A DNA stretch of 64,000 nt from Clostridia bacterium (lineage in GTDB: Bacteria > Bacillota > Clostridia > Oscillospirales > CAG-272). Within the stretch, counting starts at the first letter, position 1; each line of letters starts with the position of its first letter. The DNA lies in the NCBI GenBank assembly GCA_017938885.1, contig JAGBAS010000028.1, forward strand, positions 909 through 64,908, written 5' to 3'. The notes beneath the pieces are model-generated. The model worked only from the letters and a program-made list of their open reading frames with translations. It was not told the DNA's origin and made no database searches. A program made the translations under genes and the position numbers. Shown in pieces: positions 7,677 through 59,869 of the stretch.

Positions 7677-8669
7677 ATGGAATTTTCTGCTGCATATCTG
7701 CCCGAGGGTCAACTCCTCACCACCGCCCGCAACCGCGAATATACCGCCACACTGCAAGGCCTGGAAAAGGCCATGGAGACGGGAGCCATCATCGAAGGAA
7801 CGGTCATCCTCTGCGATGCCAACATGGATCTGCACGTGGACTTTCCTGCTCTTTCGGGGGTACGGGGGATCATCCCCCGCTGCGAGGCGGTATGGAGCCG
7901 CGACGGAGAACCGCCCAAGGACATTGCCATTCTGACCCGTGTGGGAAAGGCTGTGGCCTGCAAGGTGACGGGCGTGGAATACAATGAAGAAACCGGCACG
8001 ACGGTCTATCTGTCCCGCCGTCTCGCTCAGGCCGAATGCGCGGCGAATTACCTGGACGGGCTGTGCCCGGGGGATGTTTTGCGGGCCAAGGTGACTCATC
8101 TGGAGAGCTTCGGTGCCTTCGTGGATCTGGGATGCGGGGTTCCTTCCCTGCTCTCGGTGGACGGCATCTCCATCTCCCGCATCTCCCATCCGCGGGACAG
8201 ACTCTATAACGGTCAGCTCATCTGGTGCGTGGTCAAAAGCATCGACCGTGAGACGGGGCGCATCTTCGTTTCCACGCGGGAGCTGCTGGGCACCTGGGAG
8301 CAGAACGCCGCGCGGTTTACCCCGGGGCAGACCGTAGCGGGGATCGTGCGGAGCGTGGAGGATTACGGAGTCTTTGTGGAGCTGGCTCCCAATCTGGCGG
8401 GGCTGGCTGAGGTGCGGGACTGCGACCGTGAGGCAGTCCACTCCCTCGTGGGGCGGACGGCGGCGGTGTTCATCAAGAGCATCATCCCCGAGCGCATGAA
8501 GGTCAAGCTGGTGCTGATCGATGCCTACAAGGGGGAGCCGGTTCCCCTGCCTCGGCTCCACTACTTCATTCGTGGAGACGAGGTGAGTCACATCGACCGA
8601 TGGGTCTATTCTCCTTCGGGTGCGAAAAAACGGGTGGAAACGGTGTTTGGGGAGAATGAGAAATGCTAA
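7677..8669 (+). CDS. S1 RNA-binding domain protein (about three S1-like repeats)
   Basis: GDVLRAKVTHLESFGAFVDLGCGVPSLL and GQTVAGIVRSVEDYGVFVELAPNLAGLAEV are S1-fold signatures. RBS gaaaggatacaagcccATG. The last codons and the stop lie inside repeat element A. Confidence 0.8.
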   Translation: MEFSAAYLPEGQLLTTARNREYTATLQGLEKAMETGAIIEGTVILCDANMDLHVDFPALSGVRGIIPRCEAVWSRDGEPPKDIAILTRVGKAVACKVTGVEYNEETGTTVYLSRRLAQAECAANYLDGLCPGDVLRAKVTHLESFGAFVDLGCGVPSLLSVDGISISRISHPRDRLYNGQLIWCVVKSIDRETGRIFVSTRELLGTWEQNAARFTPGQTVAGIVRSVEDYGVFVELAPNLAGLAEVRDCDREAVHSLVGRTAAVFIKSIIPERMKVKLVLIDAYKGEPVPLPRLHYFIRGDEVSHIDRWVYSPSGAKKRVETVFGENEKC

Positions 8670-8819
8670 ATTGGGTTTTATCGGGCCGAAGCCCGACAAA
8701 CTGCAAGTGAAGTACTCCCTTTGATCGAGTGAAAAGCGGCAGAGCCGTTCACTCGCCGCTTGCGGCGTACTTCTCTTGGGTTTAGCGCGCAGCAATAAAC
8801 CCAATTTTTAGCATCGCCT
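8654..8819. repeat. Palindromic intergenic element A (TTGGGTTTATCG-type terminal inverted repeats)
   Basis: The left end aaatgctaaattgggttttatcg matches the reverse complement of the right end, gcgatgctaaaaattgggtttattg. The same termini occur at 40852..41097 and 45791..45987. The inside holds short GC hairpins (cgggc-cgaa-gcccg; gagtgaa/ttcactc; aagcggc/gccgctt). Confidence 0.75.
8776..8809 (+). terminator. Terminator candidate formed by the right end of element A
   Basis: Stem ttgggttta (8776..8784) / taaacccaa (8796..8804) with an 11-nt loop, followed by TTTTT. Confidence 0.5.
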
Positions 8820-26000: not shown

Positions 26001-26116
26001 AAGATACGAGATACGCGCCGAGCAAGCTCGGCAGATACAAGATACAAGATAAAAAAGAGAGGCAGTGCGAAAGTCCAACGTATATCTTGTATCTTTGTAT
26101 CTTGTATCTTTGTATC
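26001..26116. repeat. Heptad-armed palindromic element D, (GATACAA)n / (TTGTATC)n
   Basis: Sequence: aaGATACGAGATACG-cgccgagcaagctcggca-GATACAAGATACAAGATAaaa...loop...atatcTTGTATCTTTGTATCTTGTATCTTTGTATC. It abuts the polC stop codon (26117..26119). Confidence 0.85.
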
Positions 26117-38868: not shown

Positions 38869-38890
38869 GGTATGTACCTGCCTTTCTTGA

Positions 38891-38925
38891 ATGCAAAATG
38901 CGAAATGCAAAATGCAAAATGAATT
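38891..38925. repeat. Tandem heptad array (ATGCAAA)n
   Basis: ATGCAAA-ATGCGAA-ATGCAAA-ATGCAAA-ATGAATT lies immediately upstream (coding-strand sense: CATTTTG units) of the RBS of the 37231..38868 gene. The same TTGCAAAATG motif occurs in the outer arms of element C and near 55561..55578. Confidence 0.8.
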
Positions 38926-38939
38926 TTGTGGTTTCCTTG

Positions 38940-40851: not shown

Positions 40852-41097
40852 TTTTCAAATTTGGGTTTATCGAACTGTTTGTTTGTGCCTTGCCCGCGTT
40901 ATTTGCCCTCTCACCGCTGCGCGGAGCTCCCCAAAAGGGGGAGCCTTGGGACGACGGAAAACACTTGTTGGGAAATGGGATTTTTGGAATTTGTCACGAA
41001 AGGCTCCCCCTCTGGGGGAGCTCCCGCCGTAGGCGGGTGAGAGGGCAAAACGCGAAGGCCAGCACTACCAAACGAACCGATAAACCCCAATTTTCAC
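40852..41097. repeat. Palindromic intergenic element B (TTGGGTTTATCG-type termini plus an inner GGAGCTCCCC/GGGGGAGCC palindrome)
   Basis: The left end ttttcaaatttgggtttatcgaac matches the right-end reverse complement, gtgaaaattggggtttatcggttc. The inner palindrome 40903..41048 is ttgccctctcacc...ggagctccccaaaagggggagcc // ggctccccctctgggggagctcc...ggtgagagggcaa. The right terminus contains the sigG stop codon. Confidence 0.8.
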
Positions 41098-42854: not shown

Positions 42855-44039
42855 TCACAGAATGTCGCTCTCGTCGTCGGGGATGGCCTCCTTCATGGCA
42901 GCGATGGCGCACTCGATCATGCTGTCGTCGGGTTCCAGGACGGTAATGCGCTGGAACCACAGGCCGGGGGCGGCGATGATACGGGTCAGGAGGTTGTCGT
43001 GGCGGCCGCAGAATTTAATGAGCTCATAGCCAATACCCATGACCAGAGGCATGATGGCCAGCTTGATCGCGGTCAGCAGCCACTTATTGAGGGTAGCGGG
43101 GATAAAGAAACCGATGAGAATGCTGACAAGCAGCATCAGCACCAAAAAGGAAGTGCCGCATCGGGGATGAAAGCGACGCTCCTCGCGGATATTCTCCACA
43201 GTCAGCTCCTTGCCATGCTCGTAGCAGAAGATGGTCTTATGCTCGGCACCGTGGAACTGGAAGGTGCGGCGGATATCCTTCATGAGAAGCATGAGGGACA
43301 TATAGCCGACGAGGAGGATCAAGCGGATGGAGGTGGTGCAAAGGGACTGTAAAAAGCGGTTATTCTGAGGGAAATTCGGGATGTGGGCCTCCATGACGTC
43401 CTTGTAGAGGAAGGAGGGCAGGAAGAAGAACAGGCCGATCATGATGGCTACGGCAAACAGCACCGAGATCACCATGATGAGGTTCATCATGGCCGAGGAT
43501 TCCTTCTTTTCCTTCTGGGCAGGCGCGGGCGCGGACTCGGCGGCAGGAGTCTCCGCTGTCTCTGCGGAGGGGGTAACCACCGTCTCGGCCGGGGATTCGG
43601 CGGACTCGACCACTTCGGGGGCGGGCTCTACCGCCTCAGAGGCAGGGACCTCCACGGCTACGGGCAGGGTCTCACCATTCTTGGCGGCCTTTTTGGCGGC
43701 TTTCTCGGCCTTCTTGGCGGCCTTCTTATCGGCCTTTTCCTTTTCCATCTCGGCTTCGAGCTCCTCCAGCCCCGAGATCTCGGCGGAGCGCATGAGGCAC
43801 TTGTAGCCGAAGGTCATGGAATCAACAAAGCCAATAACACCGCGGATGATGGGCCAGCGGCAGATGGCGGGGCGTTTCTTACCCACGGTGGGGAAGGTCT
43901 CCAGGACGATCTCCCCTTGGGGATTGCGGACGGCCATGGCGGTGGTCTTGGGGCCGCGCATCATGATGCCCTCCATGAGTGCCTGGCCGCCGATGGAGGT
44001 CTTGCGGAGAGGACAGGCATTGTTTGTATGCTTACTCAT
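42855..44039 (-). CDS. DUF1385-family membrane protein with a ~95-aa low-complexity insertion
   Basis: IGGQALMEGIMMRGP...FHGAEHKTI...RCGTSFL are DUF1385 hallmarks. The insertion reads EKEKADKKAAKKAEKAAKKAAKNGE...PAPEVVESAESPAETVVTPSAETAETPAAESAPAPAQKEKKE. Confidence 0.8.
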   Translation of the reverse strand: MSKHTNNACPLRKTSIGGQALMEGIMMRGPKTTAMAVRNPQGEIVLETFPTVGKKRPAICRWPIIRGVIGFVDSMTFGYKCLMRSAEISGLEELEAEMEKEKADKKAAKKAEKAAKKAAKNGETLPVAVEVPASEAVEPAPEVVESAESPAETVVTPSAETAETPAAESAPAPAQKEKKESSAMMNLIMVISVLFAVAIMIGLFFFLPSFLYKDVMEAHIPNFPQNNRFLQSLCTTSIRLILLVGYMSLMLLMKDIRRTFQFHGAEHKTIFCYEHGKELTVENIREERRFHPRCGTSFLVLMLLVSILIGFFIPATLNKWLLTAIKLAIMPLVMGIGYELIKFCGRHDNLLTRIIAAPGLWFQRITVLEPDDSMIECAIAAMKEAIPDDESDIL

Positions 44040-44227
44040 AGGTAGTTCCTTTCACGGTTCATAGGGGATACACACTTTATCACGATATTGTACCACGAAG
44101 ATATGAACTCCATGTGAATGGGAGGGGATGAAAAAGTTTTTTTGGGTGCGGGAAATTTCGACGGAGTTTGCGGGGGGATGCGGGTATAATGGGGGAAGAA
44201 ATTCACTCACCAGAAAGGATATCATCC

Positions 44228-44758
44228 ATGCAATGCGAACGATGTAACAAGAAGAAGGCAACGGTGTTTTACCGGGAGAATATCGGAGGGAAAATCAGAG
44301 CACTGCGGCTGTGCGGGGAGTGCGCTGAGCTTTTGGAGCGGGCGGGGGAGCTGGAGGATATGAGCACGGCTCTGTCGGGGGTGTTCTCTCCTCTTCTGCG
44401 GGAGGACGAGGGAGTCTGTTTCCCGCCCTTTGGTGTCGCTCCCTCTCCCGTTCCCCGGAACGCCGCCCGCAAATGTCCTGCCTGCGGAGCCCTGCTCTCC
44501 GAGATCGCCGCTACGGGCCGGGTGGGGTGCGCCGCCTGCTACACCGCCTTTGAGGCAGAGCTGCGGGATCTTCTGATCGGCATACACGGGCGGGTCTTTC
44601 ATCGGGGGCGGGTATCGGCGGGATACCGCGCTCGAAAGGAGCGGTTGGAGCGGATGGAGGATTTACGGCAGCAGCTGCGGATTGCGGTAGAAGCAGAGGA
44701 ATACGAGCGGGCGGCCGGACTTCGGGACGAGATCCGAGGTCTGGAAGCCGCGCTGTAA
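44228..44758 (+). CDS. mcsA: McsA-like protein (UvrB/C-motif, zinc-finger activator of McsB)
   Basis: Four CxxC pairs (CERC, CGEC, CPAC, CAAC) and a C-terminal UVR motif, [17 protein letters not shown]. It lies directly upstream of mcsB. Confidence 0.8.
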   Translation: MQCERCNKKKATVFYRENIGGKIRALRLCGECAELLERAGELEDMSTALSGVFSPLLREDEGVCFPPFGVAPSPVPRNAARKCPACGALLSEIAATGRVGCAACYTAFEAELRDLLIGIHGRVFHRGRVSAGYRARKERLERMEDLRQQLRIAVEAEEYERAAGLRDEIRGLEAAL

Positions 44759-44770
44759 GGAGGACGGATC

Positions 44771-45790
44771 ATGTCGTGGTATCATATTCCCGGGAATCAG
44801 CAGGACGTGGCGGTATTTACCCGCATCACCATTGCCCGCAATCTTTCGGGGCATCCCTTTCCCTCCCGCTTGGACGCGGCAGGCGCGCGGGCCGTTTTAG
44901 AAGCGGTGGGCGGCGTATTTGAACGGAACGGCTTTACCCGCACCGACCCGGGCACGTTGTCCCGCACGGCCGCAGAGGCTCTGGCAGAGAAGCGGTACGT
45001 CAGCCCCCGCTTTATCGCCGAAAGTCTTCCCCACGCGCTGTTTCTCAACGAGCCCTGCAACCTGGCCGTTACGGTCTGCGAGGACGACCACATCCGCATC
45101 CGCTGTATCCTGTCGGGACTGGCCTTGAAGGATGCTTACGAAGGGGCAGGGCGGGTGGAGACTCTGCTGGACAGCGCGCTTGAGCTGGCCTTTGACGAAA
45201 AGCTGGGGTATCTCACGGCCAACCCGACTGAATTGGGCACGGCTCTGCGAGGAAGCGTTACGGTCTGCCTTCCCATGCTGGGCGGAGCGGGACGGGTAGA
45301 AGCCCTGTCCCGCAGTCTGGAGCAAACGGGGCTTTGCCTGCGGGGGAGCACCGTCGATCCCGTGGCCGCAGGATGGCTCTACCGCATCTATAACCGCACC
45401 ACCCTGGGGCAGACTGAGGAGGAGGTGCTGAATGCCCTGGAGGGAACAGTCCAGCACTTGATCGAAGCGGAACGGCAGGCCCGTGAGGGGATCTCGGGGA
45501 CGGAGCGGGAAAAGCTGACAGACCGCATCCTCCGCGCCGAGGGGATCCTCCGCCACGCCCACATGATCCCCATTTCCGAGCTCCCTTCCCTGCTGGGGCT
45601 GATGCGGCTCGGCGCGGCTATGGGGCTGACTCCTGCCGTCAAGGTCGAGGCTTTGACCGCCCTGCTCGTCGAGGCCATGCCCGCGACCCTGACCTTGGGA
45701 GCCGAGCCCCCGCCAGTGACCGATGCCCAGCGGGAGCTTTTGCGGGCAAAGGTCGTGCGGGACAGGCTCTTCGGAGCCGAATACGGATAA
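44771..45790 (+). CDS. mcsB: Protein arginine kinase McsB (ATP:guanido phosphotransferase family)
   Basis: ITIARNLSGHPFP...CEDDHIRIRC...LGYLTANPTELGTALRGSV...YRIYNRTTLGQTEEE. RBS taaggaggacggatcATG. Confidence 0.9.
   Translation: MSWYHIPGNQQDVAVFTRITIARNLSGHPFPSRLDAAGARAVLEAVGGVFERNGFTRTDPGTLSRTAAEALAEKRYVSPRFIAESLPHALFLNEPCNLAVTVCEDDHIRIRCILSGLALKDAYEGAGRVETLLDSALELAFDEKLGYLTANPTELGTALRGSVTVCLPMLGGAGRVEALSRSLEQTGLCLRGSTVDPVAAGWLYRIYNRTTLGQTEEEVLNALEGTVQHLIEAERQAREGISGTEREKLTDRILRAEGILRHAHMIPISELPSLLGLMRLGAAMGLTPAVKVEALTALLVEAMPATLTLGAEPPPVTDAQRELLRAKVVRDRLFGAEYG
45779..45790 (+). repeat. Left copy of the 12-bp direct repeat GAATACGGATAA (putative target-site duplication)
   Basis: An identical 12-mer lies at 45988..45999. 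The left copy encodes the last three codons and the stop of mcsB (E-Y-G-stop). Confidence 0.8.
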
Positions 45791-45987
45791 GAGCCAATTG
45801 CAAAATGCTCAAATTTGGGTTTATCGAACAGATACAAGATACGGAGATACAAGATACGGAGATACAAGATACAAGATATAGAACGGCTGTTGCCTCAAGG
45901 TTATTTCATATCTTGTATCTTTGTATCTTGTATCTTGTATCTTGTATCTCACCGAAAAACCCCAATTTTACATTTTGCAATCGCCTA
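45791..45987. mobile_element. Composite nested palindromic element C (MITE-like): outer TTGCAAAATG/TTGGGTTTATCG arms enclosing (GATACAA)n / (TTGTATC)n arms
   Basis: The left end gagccaattgcaaaatgctcaaatttgggtttatcgaac matches the right-end reverse complement, taggcgattgcaaaatgtaaaattggggtttttcggtg. The inner arms are 45831..45881 (GATACAA/GATACGGA units) and 45908..45948 (TTGTATC units). A perfect 12-bp direct repeat flanks the element. Confidence 0.8.
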
Positions 45988-45999
45988 GAATACGGATAA
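45988..45999 (+). repeat. Right copy of the 12-bp direct repeat GAATACGGATAA
   Basis: Identical to 45779..45790. It sits just upstream of the clpC RBS (aaataaaggaggaatctcATG). Confidence 0.8.
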
Positions 46000-46015
46000 A
46001 TAAAGGAGGAATCTC

Positions 46016-48538
46016 ATGACCAACCGTTTCACAGGCCGCGCCCAGAGCGCGCTCAACGGAGCCTTGCGGGAGGCGCAGGCCCTGGGGCATACCTACGTCG
46101 GCTCGGAGCATTTATTGCTGGGTCTACTCACCGAAAGCGAATGCATCGCCGCCAAGCTCATGCGAGCCAGGGGAGCCGATCCCGATAAGTACCGAGCCGC
46201 CATGATCGAGCTATCGGGAGAGGGGGCTCAGAGTCGGGTATCCCCTTCGGATATGACGCCGCGTGTTCGTCGGATCATCCAGGATTCCGCCAACGAGGCG
46301 GGGCGGTCGGGGCAGTCCTACGTGGGGACCGAGCATCTGCTCCTGGCCCTGCTGGATCAACCCGACTGCGTAGCGGTGCGCCTTCTGGAATCGGTCTCCG
46401 TCTCTCCGGACGAGCTGCGGCGGGACGTGGTGGGCTTTCTGGCCGCCTCTCCCTCGGCCTCCGGGGGCATGGAGCCTTCGGTCAAGGCACGGAGCGAGGA
46501 GCGCAATCCCCGTTCCCGGGAGGAACTGCGTGAAGGACATCGGGAGCGGGGGAGCACGGAAAATGGCCATACCCGTATTCCGGGAGCACCCACGCTATCC
46601 AAATACGGCCGCGATCTCACCTCCCGCGCGCGGGAGGGCAAGCTGGATCCCATCATCGGGCGGGAAGCCGAGACCGAGCGCGTCATCCGCATCCTGTCCC
46701 GTCGTCAGAAGAATAATCCCTGTCTGATCGGTGAGCCCGGAGTGGGAAAAACCGCCGTGATCGAGGGGCTGTGTCAGCGCATTGCAGACGGGAGCGTCCC
46801 CGAGACTCTGAAGGGGAAAAGCATCATTACGCTGGATATTCCCGCCATGATCGCCGGGGCGAAATACCGCGGGGAATTTGAGGATCGGCTCAAGGGTATT
46901 ATGGCCGAGGTGCGCGGGGAGCCTGACCTGATCCTGTTCATTGATGAGCTTCACACCATTGTGGGAGCGGGCGCGGCTGAGGGTGCAGTGGATGCCGCCA
47001 ACATCCTCAAGCCTGCCCTGGCGCGGGGGGAGATCCGCATCATCGGAGCGACCACGGCGGAGGAATACCGGCTCCACGTAGAAAAGGATTCTGCCCTGGA
47101 ACGGCGGTTCCAGGCGGTTATAGTCGGCGAGCCGAGCGAGGAGGAAGCCCTGCGCATCCTAACGGGTCTGCGGCCCCGCTACGAGGCTCACCACAAATTG
47201 AAGATCACCGACGAGGCGTTGCGGGCGGCGGTTGAGCTGTCGGTCAAATACATTCCCGACCGCTTTCTCCCCGACAAGGCCATCGACCTCATGGATGAGG
47301 CGGCGGCGGCTCTCCGCATCTCCTGCATGACCGCGCCCCCCGATCTCAAGCGCATGGAGGCAGAGCTCTCCACCCTGTCCCGCGAGAAGGAGGAGGCCAT
47401 CAAGGCGCAGGAATTCGAGCGGGCGGCCGGGCTTCGGGATCGGGAACGACTTTTGCAGGAGTCCTACGACTCCGCCCGCAACGCCTGGTCAGAGGATCCG
47501 AGCCGCCGCCAATCAGAGGAGACCGTCACCCCCGCCGCCATCGCCGATGTAGTCACCGAATGGACGGGCATCCCCGTGGCGCGTCTGCTGGAAAGCGAGG
47601 GAGAACGGCTTCTGAGTCTGGAAAAAACGCTTCAAGAGCGGGTGATCGGCCAGAGCAAGGCGGTCTCTGCCGTGGCGGGCGCTATCCGCAGAGGTCGGCT
47701 GGGGCTGAGCGACCCCCGCCGTCCCATTGGCTCCTTCATCTTTCTGGGGCAGACGGGCGTAGGAAAGACCGAGCTGGCGCGGGCTCTGGCGGCGGCTTTG
47801 TTCGGGAGTGAAAAAGCCTTGATCCGCTTTGATATGTCGGAATATATGGAGAAGCACAGTGTTTCCCGCCTCATCGGTTCTCCCCCCGGGTATATCGGCC
47901 ACGAAGAGGGGGGACAGCTTACGGAGCGGGTGCGGCGAAAGCCCTACGCAGTGGTGCTCTTTGACGAGCTGGAGAAGGCGCATCCCGATATTTACAATAT
48001 TCTGCTTCAGGTCATGGACGACGGTTCCCTCACCGACTCAGCCGGACGGCGGGTGGATTTCCGTCACACCGTCCTCATCATGACCTCCAACCTGGGAGCT
48101 GAAGAAAGCCGCCAACCCTCGGTGGGCTTTACGGGCGGAGACCGAAAGGAACGCGGACACGAGCGCATGACCGAAGCACTCAAGCGAGCCTTTCGCCCCG
48201 AATTTCTGGGGCGGATCGACGAGGTCGTGGTCTTCGATACCCTGGGGATAGAAGAAGTCAGCCAAATCGCCGTCCAACATCTGGAGGCTCTCCGCACCCG
48301 GGTCGGTTCGCTGGGGATCCGACTGGAATGGACCAAGAATTGCGTATCCCTGCTGGCCGAGGAGGGGCTTGACCCCAGATACGGTGCCCGTCCCCTGCGC
48401 CGCGCGGCTGTACGGCTGATCGAGGAGCCCTTGGCGGAGGCGATCCTGCGGGGAGGTATCCTCGAAGGGGACAGGGTTACGGTGGAGGCAGAGGATGGGA
48501 AATGCGTATTTCGTATAGAGGGAAATCAGCAGAGGTGA
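46016..48538 (+). CDS. clpC: ATP-dependent Clp protease ATP-binding subunit ClpC
   Basis: Two Clp-N repeats, Walker [10 protein letters not shown] and GQTGVGKTE, a UVR-like motif [17 protein letters not shown], and the ClpB_D2-small tail. Confidence 0.95.
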
Positions 48539-57323: not shown

Positions 57324-58655
57324 ATGAAAGAATTTTTCGGCCCTGACGTTCTGCTCCGCTCAGATGCGGCCAAGGCCCTCTATGCGACGGTCAAGGACCT
57401 GCCCATCATCGACTACCATTGCCACCTCAACGAGACGGAGATCGCGGCTGACCGCAGCTTCTCGGACCTGGGCGAGCTGTGGCTGGGAGGCGACCACTAC
57501 AAGTGGCGCGCCATGCGGATGTGCGGTATCGACGAGAAGTACGTAACCGGCGATGCCGACTTCTCCGAGAAGTACATGAGGTACGCCTCCATCTTCCCCC
57601 GACTGGCGGGCAATCCTCTGTACTACTGGACTCAGATGGAGCTGGGCTTGATCTTCGATATCCACGAGCCGCTTGGCCCCGACACCGCCGAGGACATCCG
57701 TGAGAAGGCCAACGCCAAGCTGGCAAATATCCGCGTCAGCGATCTTCTGAAGCAGTTCAAGGTGGAGTACATCGCCACCACCGACGATCCCGTGTCGGAG
57801 CTGGCGGCTCACGGTGTGTACGGCGACACCAAGGTCTCCCCCACCTTCCGCCCCGACCGCATGATCGGTCTGGACGAGACCGCGCTCTCCGAGCTGGCCG
57901 CCGTTTCGGGCATCGCCACCGATACGCTGGAGGGCTTGAAGGCCGCTCTGACCGCAAGACTGGACTACTTCGTGGCTCACGGCTGCCGCATCAGCGACCA
58001 CGGCATGGACTGGCTTCCCGCCGCCGATTGCGGTGAGACCGCCGCCGCCGAGCTGTACGACAAGCGGGGCAAGCTGGACACCGAGGACAAGTGGACTCTG
58101 ACCTCCCATCTTCTGCACTTCGTGGCCGCTCTGTACGCCGAGCGGGGCATGGTGATGCAGCTCCACTTCGCCACCTACCGAAACGTCAACACCGCCATGT
58201 TCGGGCGGGTCGGCCGAGATGCGGGCTTTGACATCATGCGCGGAGGCGTGGACACCGACAAGCTGGTAGTCTTCCTCGACACCCTGAACAAGGAAGGCAA
58301 GCTTCCCAAGACGGTTCTGTATACGCTGAATCCCGCCTGTGTGCCTGCCCTTTGCACCCTGTCGGGGGCGTTCCCGAACGTGAGAGTCGGCGCGGCTTGG
58401 TGGTTCAACGACAGCGTGGAGGGCATCCGCCGTCAGCTCAAGCTCACCGCCGAGTACGCCGCTCTGGGCACGAGTCTCGGTATGCTGACCGACTCCCGCT
58501 CCTTCGCCAGCTACGCGCGGTTCGATTTCTTCCGCCGGATCCTCTCCGATGTGGTCGGCGAGTGGGTGGAGAACGGCGAGTATGATATGAAACACGCGGA
58601 GAAGCTGATGTATGACGTTTGCTATGGGAACGTCAAGGAGTTCTTAGGAATCTAA
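57324..58655 (+). CDS. uxaC: Glucuronate (uronate) isomerase
   Basis: LPIIDYHCHL...GDHYKWRAMRMCGI...NPLYYWTQMEL... RBS gaaaggagatcatacacATG. Confidence 0.92.
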   Translation: MKEFFGPDVLLRSDAAKALYATVKDLPIIDYHCHLNETEIAADRSFSDLGELWLGGDHYKWRAMRMCGIDEKYVTGDADFSEKYMRYASIFPRLAGNPLYYWTQMELGLIFDIHEPLGPDTAEDIREKANAKLANIRVSDLLKQFKVEYIATTDDPVSELAAHGVYGDTKVSPTFRPDRMIGLDETALSELAAVSGIATDTLEGLKAALTARLDYFVAHGCRISDHGMDWLPAADCGETAAAELYDKRGKLDTEDKWTLTSHLLHFVAALYAERGMVMQLHFATYRNVNTAMFGRVGRDAGFDIMRGGVDTDKLVVFLDTLNKEGKLPKTVLYTLNPACVPALCTLSGAFPNVRVGAAWWFNDSVEGIRRQLKLTAEYAALGTSLGMLTDSRSFASYARFDFFRRILSDVVGEWVENGEYDMKHAEKLMYDVCYGNVKEFLGI

Positions 58656-58753
58656 AGATACAAGATACAAGATACGAGATACAAGATATGGCTCAACCGA
58701 GGGTTATCTTGTATCTTGTATCTGCCGAGCATTGCTCGGCGTGTATCTTGTAT
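58655..58753. repeat. Heptad-armed palindromic element E, (GATACAA)n / (TTGTATC)n
   Basis: Sequence: GATACAAGATACAAGATACGAGATACAAGATATGG-ctcaaccgagg-gTTATCTTGTATCTTGTATC-tgccgagcattgctcggcg-TGTATCTTGTATC. It begins at the last base of the uxaC stop codon. Confidence 0.85.
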
Positions 58754-58786
58754 CTCCAAACCAACTGAAAAAGTGAGGAGAACACT

Positions 58787-59869
58787 ATGCAAATGACCTT
58801 CCGCTGGTACGGCGAGGGAAACGACCGCATCTCGCTGTCCGATATCAAGCAGATCCCCGGTGTGACGGGGATCGTCTGGGCGCTCCACCACAAGATGCCC
58901 GGTGAGATCTGGGAGGAATCCGAGATCGCCGAGGTGAAGCGGCAGCTGGACAAGTACGGCTTCAACATGGACGTGGTGGAGTCGGTCAACGTCCACGACG
59001 ATATCAAGATCGGTCTGCCCACCAGAGATCAGTATATTGAAAACTACAAGACCACCATCCGCAACCTGTCGGGATTCGGGGTCAAGGTAATCTGCTACAA
59101 CTTCATGCCCATCTTTGACTGGACTCGCTCCAATCTGTTCCACCCCGTAGGCGACGGCTCCACCGCTCTGTTCTACGAGAAGAACATGATTCAAGATGAC
59201 TACAATGCCATGGCCAAGTACATTCTGGACTTCACCGAGAAGTACCATATGTCCTTTCCCGGCTGGGAGCCCGAGCGCATGGCCAAGTTGGATCAGCTCT
59301 TCAAGGCCTACGAGGGCATCGACCACGAAAAGCTCTGGGCGAATCTGAAATATTTCCTGGAGGCCATCATGCCCACCTGCGAGGAGTGCGGCATCAAGAT
59401 GGCCATCCACATGGACGATCCGCCGTGGGATATTTTCGGTCTGCCCCGTCTTTTGGTGGACGAGGCGAGCATTGACCGATTCCTCAAGATGGTGGATCAC
59501 CCCTGCAACTGCTTGACCCTTTGCTCGGGTAGCTTGGGCGCGAATCCCGACAATGACGTGGCGGCCATTGTCCGCAAGCATTGCGACCGCATCGCCTTTG
59601 CCCACATCCGCAACGTCAAGCACTTTGAGAACGGCGACTTCTCCGAGGCCAGCCACCGCGACTGCGACGGTGACACGGGGATCCTGGACATTCTGAAGGC
59701 CTACCACGACTGCGGCTTTGAGGGCTACATCCGCCCCGACCACGGCAGACACCTGTGGAGCGAGGGCCCCGGGACGGTAAGACCGGGTTACGGGCTGTAT
59801 GACCGCGCCATGGGCATCATGTATATGCTGGGCGTGTGGGATATGCTGAATAAATTGGAACAGAAATGA
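58787..59869 (+). CDS. uxuA: Mannonate dehydratase
   Basis: MQMTFRWYGEGNDRISLSDIKQIPGVTGIVWALH... RBS agtgaggagaacactATG. Confidence 0.93.
   Translation: MQMTFRWYGEGNDRISLSDIKQIPGVTGIVWALHHKMPGEIWEESEIAEVKRQLDKYGFNMDVVESVNVHDDIKIGLPTRDQYIENYKTTIRNLSGFGVKVICYNFMPIFDWTRSNLFHPVGDGSTALFYEKNMIQDDYNAMAKYILDFTEKYHMSFPGWEPERMAKLDQLFKAYEGIDHEKLWANLKYFLEAIMPTCEECGIKMAIHMDDPPWDIFGLPRLLVDEASIDRFLKMVDHPCNCLTLCSGSLGANPDNDVAAIVRKHCDRIAFAHIRNVKHFENGDFSEASHRDCDGDTGILDILKAYHDCGFEGYIRPDHGRHLWSEGPGTVRPGYGLYDRAMGIMYMLGVWDMLNKLEQK

Follow-up and report, generated by a model that had tools for sequence, protein, structure and literature searches.

How does a large palindrome come to stand between two genes of a tightly packed stress operon while both genes remain whole? 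The question is raised by the junction of mcsB (protein arginine kinase) and clpC in a 64,000-nucleotide stretch of DNA from a Clostridia bacterium of the CAG-272 lineage (GenBank assembly GCA_017938885.1, contig JAGBAS010000028.1, positions 909 to 64,908; this whole stretch is called the window below). [quoted passage not shown] We found that a sister species has the same junction with a single copy of the 12-mer and no element, and we consider it probable that the palindrome is a real and fairly recent insertion of a non-autonomous MITE-like element.

Results

The 12-bp repeat and the palindrome it brackets

The sequence GAATACGGATAA occurs at 45779–45790 and again at 45988–45999, and a search of the window that tolerated one mismatch gave no third match. 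The repeat is exactly 12 bp long because the adjoining bases differ on both sides: the left copy is preceded by GCC and followed by GAG, the right copy by CTA and ATA. As annotated, the two copies bracket the palindrome, and their ends abut it to the base. The left copy codes for Glu-Tyr-Gly-stop, the last three codons and the TAA of the 339-residue McsB open reading frame (ORF; 44771–45790), and the right copy ends 16 nt ahead of the clpC ATG (46016), with AAGGAGG in between. The insert thus falls after the mcsB stop codon and ahead of the clpC ribosome-binding site. In a survey of about 60 Clostridia loci, most had a spacing of −8 to about +50 nt between the two genes, against 225 nt here, which bears out the description of a normally tight operon. 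The pentamer GAGCC stands directly before the left 12-mer (45774–45778) and is repeated at the very start of the element (45791–45795), and ATACGGA is common to the 12-mer and to the inner AGATACGGAGATA units; either recurrence could be a coincidence or a target preference.

As RNA, the insert folds end to end into one hairpin with a minimum free energy of −92.4 kcal/mol, against −34 ± 3.8 for shuffled sequences (z = −15.3). Its GC content is 0.32–0.46, compared with about 0.65 in the flanks. It has no coding capacity, the ORFs inside it being repeat artefacts, one of which ends in the right 12-mer. The palindrome is built of three layers, named M1, M2 and M3 from the outside inward, of which M1 and M2 form the terminal inverted repeats, or shell. 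The M1 core ATTGCAAAATG lies at 45797–45807 and its complement at 45971–45981; in the outermost 17 nt, comprising M1 and six outer bases, GAGCCAATTGCAAAATG and TAGGCGATTGCAAAATG match at 14 of 17 positions. Pairing continues inward through M2, a AAATTGGGGTTTATCG-type repeat, by AAATTTGGGTTTATCG with CGAAAAACCCCAATTT. The terminal inverted repeats are imperfect and about 36 bp long, and neither M1 nor M2 is palindromic individually.

Searches for a known structure or relative gave little. Rfam 15 returned zero matches at the gathering threshold for the window, and we rejected the matches under threshold, which had only a generic long-hairpin resemblance to plant microRNA precursors, on both strands. 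The element had no blastn match in plasmid and phage collections. A consensus scan found no promoter-like or terminator-like site at 44000–46300, so that a role as an intrinsic terminator, which has a GC-rich stem followed by a T tract, was set aside.

An empty site in a sister species

An informative relative is locus L091 (GCA_054275655.1), whose McsB (P0123), found in the 90% cluster, is 93% identical to that of the window; no McsB cluster representative fell between 70% and 100% identity. L091 has the gene order of the window (DUF1385, mcsA, mcsB, clpC, GH43). Because its flanking DNA is 83–91% identical, we regard it as a sister species. The L091 junction holds a single 12-mer, McsB again ends in Glu-Tyr-Gly-stop, clpC starts 15 nt past the mcsB stop, and the element is absent. 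The junction reads ...CTCTTCGGAGCC GAATACGGATAA AAAAGGAGGATTTTC ATGACCAACCG (in shorter extracts, ...TTCGGAGCCGAATACGGATAAAAAAGGAGGATTTTCATG and ...GGAGCC GAATACGGATAA AAAAGGAGG...ATG). Alignment with the window shows that the two sites differ by the 197-bp element and one additional 12-mer, both present in the filled site.

A junction with one 12-mer is what the initial annotation had predicted for an insertion, and, as was also proposed there, the right copy corresponds to the original mcsB end. The arrangement named there as contrary evidence, two 12-mers without an element, was seen in no relative. The comparison supports reading the repeat as a target-site duplication. Its direction, a gain here rather than a precise loss in the sister species, we can only infer, because more distant relatives bear other large palindromes at the mcsB–clpC junction.

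Three interiors at one site

The insertion is present in every contig with an identical McsB: six junctions match the window over 300 nt, and four short contigs break in the heptamer arrays. Two McsB variants, with one or two residues changed, mark other strains whose flanks are 98.0–99.4% identical. These strains carry two further alleles, seen in nine additional contigs of varied sample origin, in which the 12-bp repeat and the terminal shell of about 33 bp recur; roughly the first 32 nt of the left terminal repeat are conserved in both. Allele 2 was completed from contigs of one sample that overlap by 54 nt (L092–L096 on the left, L118 on the right), giving a 280-bp element. It keeps the 12-mer on both sides and the same shell save for one or two substitutions, and its interior is an unrelated GC-rich palindrome (−159.6 kcal/mol). 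Allele 3 (L121/L122 on the left, L119/L120 on the right) has a third interior, again a GC-rich palindrome, and its right 12-mer is GAATACGGATTA, with one base changed.

There are therefore at least three unrelated interiors at one site, that of allele 1 in the window being the (AGATACA)n hairpin. Alleles 2 and 3 have an interior module, GTGAGCCTTCCCC, and single-nucleotide polymorphisms (SNPs) of the flanks in common. Strain SNPs occur about once per 150 nt and are evenly spread, with no cluster beside the element; given this even divergence, the interior changed far faster than the flanks. So the alleles point to one insertion that has undergone at least two replacements of its core among strains less than 2% diverged in sequence.

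The structure could in principle be a metagenome assembly artefact, a fold-back chimera or a mis-join at repeats, and short-read contigs do often break within the element. An assembly error is unlikely because each allele occurs in four to six independent assemblies, with contigs linking the unique flank, the shell and the interior. The identical 300-nt junction was recovered in six independent assemblies, and alleles 2 and 3 each in four or five ENA/Logan samples. Contig names of the k141_... type point to a k-mer of 141, longer than the 36-bp shell that such contigs span together with unique flank and interior. We regard an artefact as the least credible of the explanations considered here.

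Other copies of the family

Further members of the family lie in the window (Table 1) and in related genomes. Copies A and C are (AGATACA)n hairpins with no shell; each begins at the upstream gene's stop codon and carries a GCCGAGCnnnGCTCGGC hairpin within the 3' arm. Across genera, such hairpins conserve an asymmetric layout, with heptamers in the 5' arm, a loop that varies, and GCCGAGCnnnGCTCGGC breaking the 3' arm. Four AGATACA copies are oriented alike relative to the flanking genes, and two of them begin at the stop codon itself.

Other copies are bounded by M2. An S1-domain gene (7677–8669) ends in GENEKC-stop inside the outer inverted repeat of the element at 8668, and relatives without this element end in ...ETVF-stop or ...ETIFA-stop (the latter in the sister genome L181); because these element-free relatives end differently, the element has rewritten the C-terminus of the protein. 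In related genomes, L001, whose (AGATACA)n hairpin lies at 1925–2042, has M2, M3 and a GC hairpin upstream of mcsA, and L123 has an M2-bounded element downstream of uxuA, where the window has only an 11-nt spacer. A metagenome scan for the shell added a single locus, L097, which lies downstream of an aroA-like gene. There M2 stands on both sides and M1 downstream only, the copy ending ...CATTTTGCAATTGCCTA / ...CATTTTGCAATYGCCTA, followed by the flank AACTCAAATAAA, which is unrelated to the 12-mer. Meeting a different flank, this end places the boundary of the element precisely at the start of the window's right 12-mer.

Three of these sites allow filled and empty forms to be compared. The polC site is empty in six contigs of a related species (L124–L129; TTTTAAGGAGGCCGCTATG) and is filled here between TTTTA(A/G) and GGAG. 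At the S1 gene the window has the element and L181 lacks it; at uxuA it is L123 that has an element and the window that has none. These three independent contrasts indicate that the family is mobile. An exact empty site for copy C was also sought in the uxaC–uxuA gap (58655–58787) and was abandoned: relatives (L123, L130–L132) have a 213-residue gene there, the window has the AGATACA hairpin only, and the extra gene prevents a clean comparison.

The initial annotation had proposed a check for duplications of 12 bp or some other fixed length around other copies, and no clear one was detected at the copies examined. Neither the three elements bounded by the AAATTGGGGTTTATCG repeat nor the two AGATACA hairpins of the window have a 12-bp flanking repeat, and the same holds for copies in related genomes. 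At L097, 8668, 40857 and 26001 flanking repeats reach at most 3–5 bp: the repeat at the polC site is at most AAG (3 bp), and the 40857 and L097 copies have none longer than 5 bp. The flanks of the 8668 and L123 elements are too diverged from their empty orthologous sites to place boundaries or a duplication. The proposal of a mobile MITE-like family therefore stands as regards mobility, on the three filled/empty contrasts, and the 12-bp duplication is documented only for the M1-terminated shell at mcsB–clpC. The shell may move by another route than the inner hairpins.

The other copies also bear on site-specific recombination, in which the 12-mer would be the crossover core of attL and attR, a small circle would have been integrated by a tyrosine or serine recombinase acting in trans, and the three alleles would be separate integrations. 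Such integration would likewise give one-copy empty and two-copy filled sites, and it could accommodate three alleles with the same repeat and shell and unrelated interiors, as well as the ATACGGA common to the 12-mer and the inner units. However, the complete 12-mer recurs neither inside the element nor elsewhere in the window, the neighbourhood yielded no recombinase gene, and the repeat adjoins terminal inverted repeats in the manner of a transposon. The flank SNPs and interior module common to alleles 2 and 3 fit descent from one insertion, and L097, the only other copy with the same end, has its unrelated flank; on the evidence of that one other copy we set aside an integrative element with an att core in every copy. 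We judge recombination at an att core to be distinctly improbable.

A conspecific contig, L176, is 99.1% identical to the window over 24.4 kb and has one heptamer fewer at 26083–26116 and at 38890–38921, differences consistent with slippage. Could the palindrome at mcsB–clpC then have grown in place, by heptamer expansion and fold-back synthesis, beside a repeat that arose by coincidence or slippage? Heptamer arrays do vary by single units between strains, and the GC-rich window holds about ten pairs of exact direct repeats of at least 12 bp at a spacing of 150–320 bp. But unrelated loci and other genera also have the shell sequences and the AGATACA architecture, which are hence not local products, the repeat brackets the element to the base, and the filled and empty sites differ by exactly the element and one 12-mer. 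Growth in place is thus very unlikely, nearly as much so as an assembly artefact.

In IMG/VR, the AGATACA repeat had 16 matches, all one-armed simple repeats in AT-rich viruses and none with the hairpin architecture. The M2 and M1 ends occurred singly, mostly in coding sequence of low-GC phages (the match in L162 is coding), and none had an inverted partner. An unrelated viral contig (L134, 860–990; GC 0.64) has a tandem, REP-like repeat, TTGGGTTTrTCGGGCACGGrGTGCCCGACCTACATTTA, whose likeness to M2 is partial.

More distant relatives at the same junction

Relatives with about 68% McsB identity have palindromes of their own at the mcsB–clpC junction, 147 to 256 nt long in L179, L180 and L001. 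Those of L179 (256 nt, 2515–2770) and L180 (207 nt, 2515–2721) belong to loci with 67–69% McsB identity. The L179 arms are GGGGAGC/GCTCTCCC repeats, and its right end, ...AAACCTCAATTTGCGAAATAACGCAATCGG, resembles the M2–M1 shell; the L180 arms are (ATGAATA)n and start within the TGA stop; the L001 palindrome begins ATTGCAGTTTATCGG. McsB of these relatives ends in FG(A/V/G)-stop and has no Glu-Tyr-Gly (EYG) tail. The clpC leader of L180, AAGAATACCACAAATCAAAGGAG (about 2680–2705), resembles the right 12-mer of the window together with the ribosome-binding site, TAGAATACGGATAAATAAAGGAGG (45986–46010). The EYG tail is peculiar to the window species and its sister; it may have come from read-through into an older clpC leader.

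These palindromes raise the alternative that the junction was occupied before the split from the 68%-identity relatives and that the empty site of the sister species is a precise deletion stimulated by the palindrome; the repeat would still be a target-site duplication. Long palindromes between short direct repeats are classic substrates of precise excision, as established from Tn5 and Tn10, and the presence of palindromes in all three relatives, one with a shell-like end, favours early occupancy. Yet the two 12-mers are identical at 12 of 12 positions although the right copy of one strain has already changed, and an old duplication should decay. The relatives lack the EYG tail, so the 12-mer was no mcsB end in that ancestor, and their elements have no repeat or interior in common with the window. 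The sister loci L091 and L181 (10.7 kb) are without any family module. We hold this older history to be unlikely, though less so than integration at an att core.

Locus map

The features discussed here are collected in Table 1.

Table 1. Features of the mcsB–clpC junction and other family copies in the window (positions count from the first letter of the window)
Feature	Position	Strand	Remarks
mcsB, protein arginine kinase, 339 aa	44771–45790	+	ORF; Pfam ATP-gua_Ptrans, McsB_C; homologues
Left 12-mer, GAATACGGATAA	45779–45790	+	Putative target-site duplication; single copy in sister species
Inserted AT-rich nested palindrome, 197 bp, allele 1	45791–45987	.	Absent from L091; end-to-end fold; GC trough
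Left terminal inverted repeat (shell)	45791–45829	+	GAGCCAATTGCAAAATGCTC (M1) then AAATTTGGGTTTATCGAAC (M2)
5' arm of inner hairpin	45830–45878	+	Tandem AGATACA/AGATACGG units (M3)
Loop of inner hairpin, 30 nt	45879–45908	+	
3' arm of inner hairpin	45909–45950	+	(TATCTTG)n, complementary to 5' arm
Right terminal inverted repeat (shell)	45951–45987	+	ACCGAAAAACCCCAATTT (M2) then TACATTTTGCAATCGCCTA (M1)
Element-end sequence, M1 copies			TAGGCRATTGCAAAATG
Right 12-mer	45988–45999	+	Corresponds to original mcsB end; GAATACGGATTA in third allele
clpC ribosome-binding site, AAGGAGG	46003–46009	+	Untouched by insertion; motif also in empty site
clpC, 840 aa	46016–48538	+	Pfam Clp_N, AAA and others
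M2-bounded palindrome, GC-rich core	8668–8808	+	Absent from sister genome L181
Copy A, (AGATACA)n hairpin with nested GCCGAGCTTGCTCGGC hairpin	26001–26116	-	Between polC stop codon and DUF1643 gene
Half shell, (AATGCAA)n array (M1-like) and AATTTTGTGGTTT (M2-like)	38890–38939	-	Between two minus-strand genes
M2-bounded palindrome, GC-rich interior, 237 bp	40857–41093	-	Starts at stop codon of sporulation-type sigma-factor gene
Copy C, architecture as copy A	58656–58755	+	Directly after uxaC stop codon, ahead of uxuA

Discussion

A probable course of events for the junction

The comparisons above are best accommodated by a small, non-coding element of the MITE type that would have entered the 15–16-nt mcsB–clpC spacer after the split from the sister species. 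The target would have been cut with a 12-bp stagger, and repair of the gaps would have duplicated GAATACGGATAA, so that the left copy preserves McsB and the right copy preserves the clpC leader and its ribosome-binding site. The insertion was presumably tolerated because the duplicated stretch keeps the ends of both genes. The enzyme may have been a DDE-type transposase acting in trans, encoded elsewhere in the genome or since lost. Later the interior would have been replaced at least twice while the ends of about 33 bp and the duplication stayed, most likely by ectopic gene conversion with members sharing M2 arms, possibly after breakage of the palindrome. At the RNA level, the very stable hairpin of the insert may, by way of processing or stabilisation, uncouple mcsB from clpC.

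Several points weigh against this course of events. Repeats of 12 bp like the one here arise about ten times in the window by chance or composition, so that the repeat taken alone is weak evidence; this one stands above chance because it brackets a palindrome to the base and because the empty site of a relative has a single copy. The 12-bp duplication is seen only for the M1-terminated shell at mcsB–clpC, and its length was not confirmed at a second site. The palindromes at the same junction in relatives of about 68% McsB identity, with the shell-like end of L179, make an older occupancy followed by precise loss in the sister species possible. No transposase or integrase domain was found among the tested ORFs of the window, in agreement with the initial annotation, and the gene tables of contigs retrieved for comparison show none; nor did the window, the plasmid, phage and viral collections or the metagenome scan for the shell yield an autonomous element whose ends match. 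The ends, GAGCC.../TAGGC..., are unlike the signatures of IS231 (CAT...) or IS4 (-AATR).

A different mechanism could also underlie the family. The M2-bounded palindromes and heptamer hairpins might be clade-specific mobile hairpins directed by structure, moved by a dedicated enzyme acting on extruded or single-stranded hairpins rather than by cut-and-paste transposition and passive conversion. This idea draws on the fast and symmetric exchange of cores, with three unrelated cores at one site in strains less than 2% apart, and on the AGATACA, AATGCAA and ATGAATA hairpins, which insert at stop codons with essentially no duplication. We give it about the same small chance as an older occupancy of the junction, and favour the MITE-type insertion.

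The locus offers a clean filled/empty pair for a small mobile element in uncultured gut Clostridia, where such elements are barely described, and illustrates how a target duplication spanning a stop codon lets an element land in a tight operon with neither gene damaged. Three unrelated cores at one site in near-identical strains form a natural strain-typing marker, and the locus is a tractable case for the study of palindrome tolerance, breakage and repair in bacteria. With the insertion, the mcsA–mcsB–clpC stress operon holds a hairpin (−92 to −160 kcal/mol) that may alter the expression of the arginine kinase relative to the ClpC unfoldase. Of more specialist interest are the fast symmetric turnover of the core at a fixed site and the clade-wide occurrence of heptamer hairpins directly on stop codons.

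Comparison with known systems

A literature search on the repeat sequence and on 12-bp duplications in bacterial MITEs found nothing relevant. MITEs are in general shorter than 500 bp, AT-rich, intergenic and strongly folding, with direct repeats in young copies (PMC10969869). The insert matches the structure of a MITE in size (197 bp, or 280 bp in allele 2), in being non-coding, in its inverted ends and in a duplication verified by an empty site. As to dispersed copies, the M1 end occurs also in L097, and M2-bounded elements occur at 8668, 40857, L123 and L001, none with a clear duplication; a duplication at one copy only fits the usual visibility of such repeats at young insertions (PMC10969869). 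Like the MITEs of the Correia/NEMIS, RUP and ERIC type, the element is short, non-coding, AT-rich and intergenic within an operon, with terminal repeats, a target duplication and a stable hairpin. It differs from MITEs in being palindromic almost throughout, in its nested modules and in the length of its 12-bp duplication. Well-known MITE families typically make duplications of TA or of 2–9 bp. We know of no parent insertion sequence for the element.

Mosaics of repetitive extragenic palindromic (REP) sequences, the bacterial interspersed mosaic elements of enterobacteria, are likewise intergenic palindromic modules, variously combined, between co-directional or convergent genes. REP sequences are short, imperfect palindromes that share a tetranucleotide on the 5' side; they make no target duplication and have no long terminal repeats, and they are moved by RAYT (Y1) transposases and carry a GTAG-type motif. 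We rejected a REP or REPIN origin, given the duplication, the non-palindromic M1 and M2, and the lack of a Y1 transposase match among the window ORFs tested. Elements derived from IS200/IS605 have neither terminal inverted repeats nor a duplication and insert 3' of a fixed target of 4–5 nt. This origin was also rejected: the outer element has terminal repeats and the 12-bp duplication, and the left flanks of the AGATACA hairpins differ (TTTAG, TCTAA, CGAAC and GCGGT).

Two resemblances at the ends were dropped. The sequence CCTAGAATA, at the right junction, looks like the left arm of the Bacillus dif site, and the rest of the 28-mer is mismatched to a dif/Xer-like site. A GG..TTGCAAA likeness to IS6/IS26 ends was discounted as that family makes 8-bp duplications. 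The BrickBuilt MITE of Porphyromonas gingivalis, which always lies between genes, contains an internal tandem array whose copy number varies (PMC4596501). Its 23-nt unit forms one direct array, unlike the 7-nt units here, which form two complementary arrays that pair as a hairpin.

The length of the duplication has its nearest parallel in the IS231 and IS4 subgroups, whose direct repeats are 10–12 bp in IS231 and 10–13 bp in IS4 (PMC2266710, Table 1). The 12 bp found here fall within this range of 10–13 bp, about one helical turn. We rejected an IS4-family derivative all the same: the signatures CAT-------AA--TAA and -AATR--------WTW (PMC2266710, Table 1) are absent from the ends, which are GAGCCAATTGCAAAATGCTC and TAGGCGATTGCAAAATGTAA. 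IS231 is almost confined to the Bacillus cereus group, and no IS4-type transposase was found here. In its modular make-up, however, the element is similar to IS231 and to the mobile insertion cassettes derived from it (MIC231): IS231 carries variable passenger DNA between conserved ends, and the element at mcsB–clpC has a constant shell around a variable interior.

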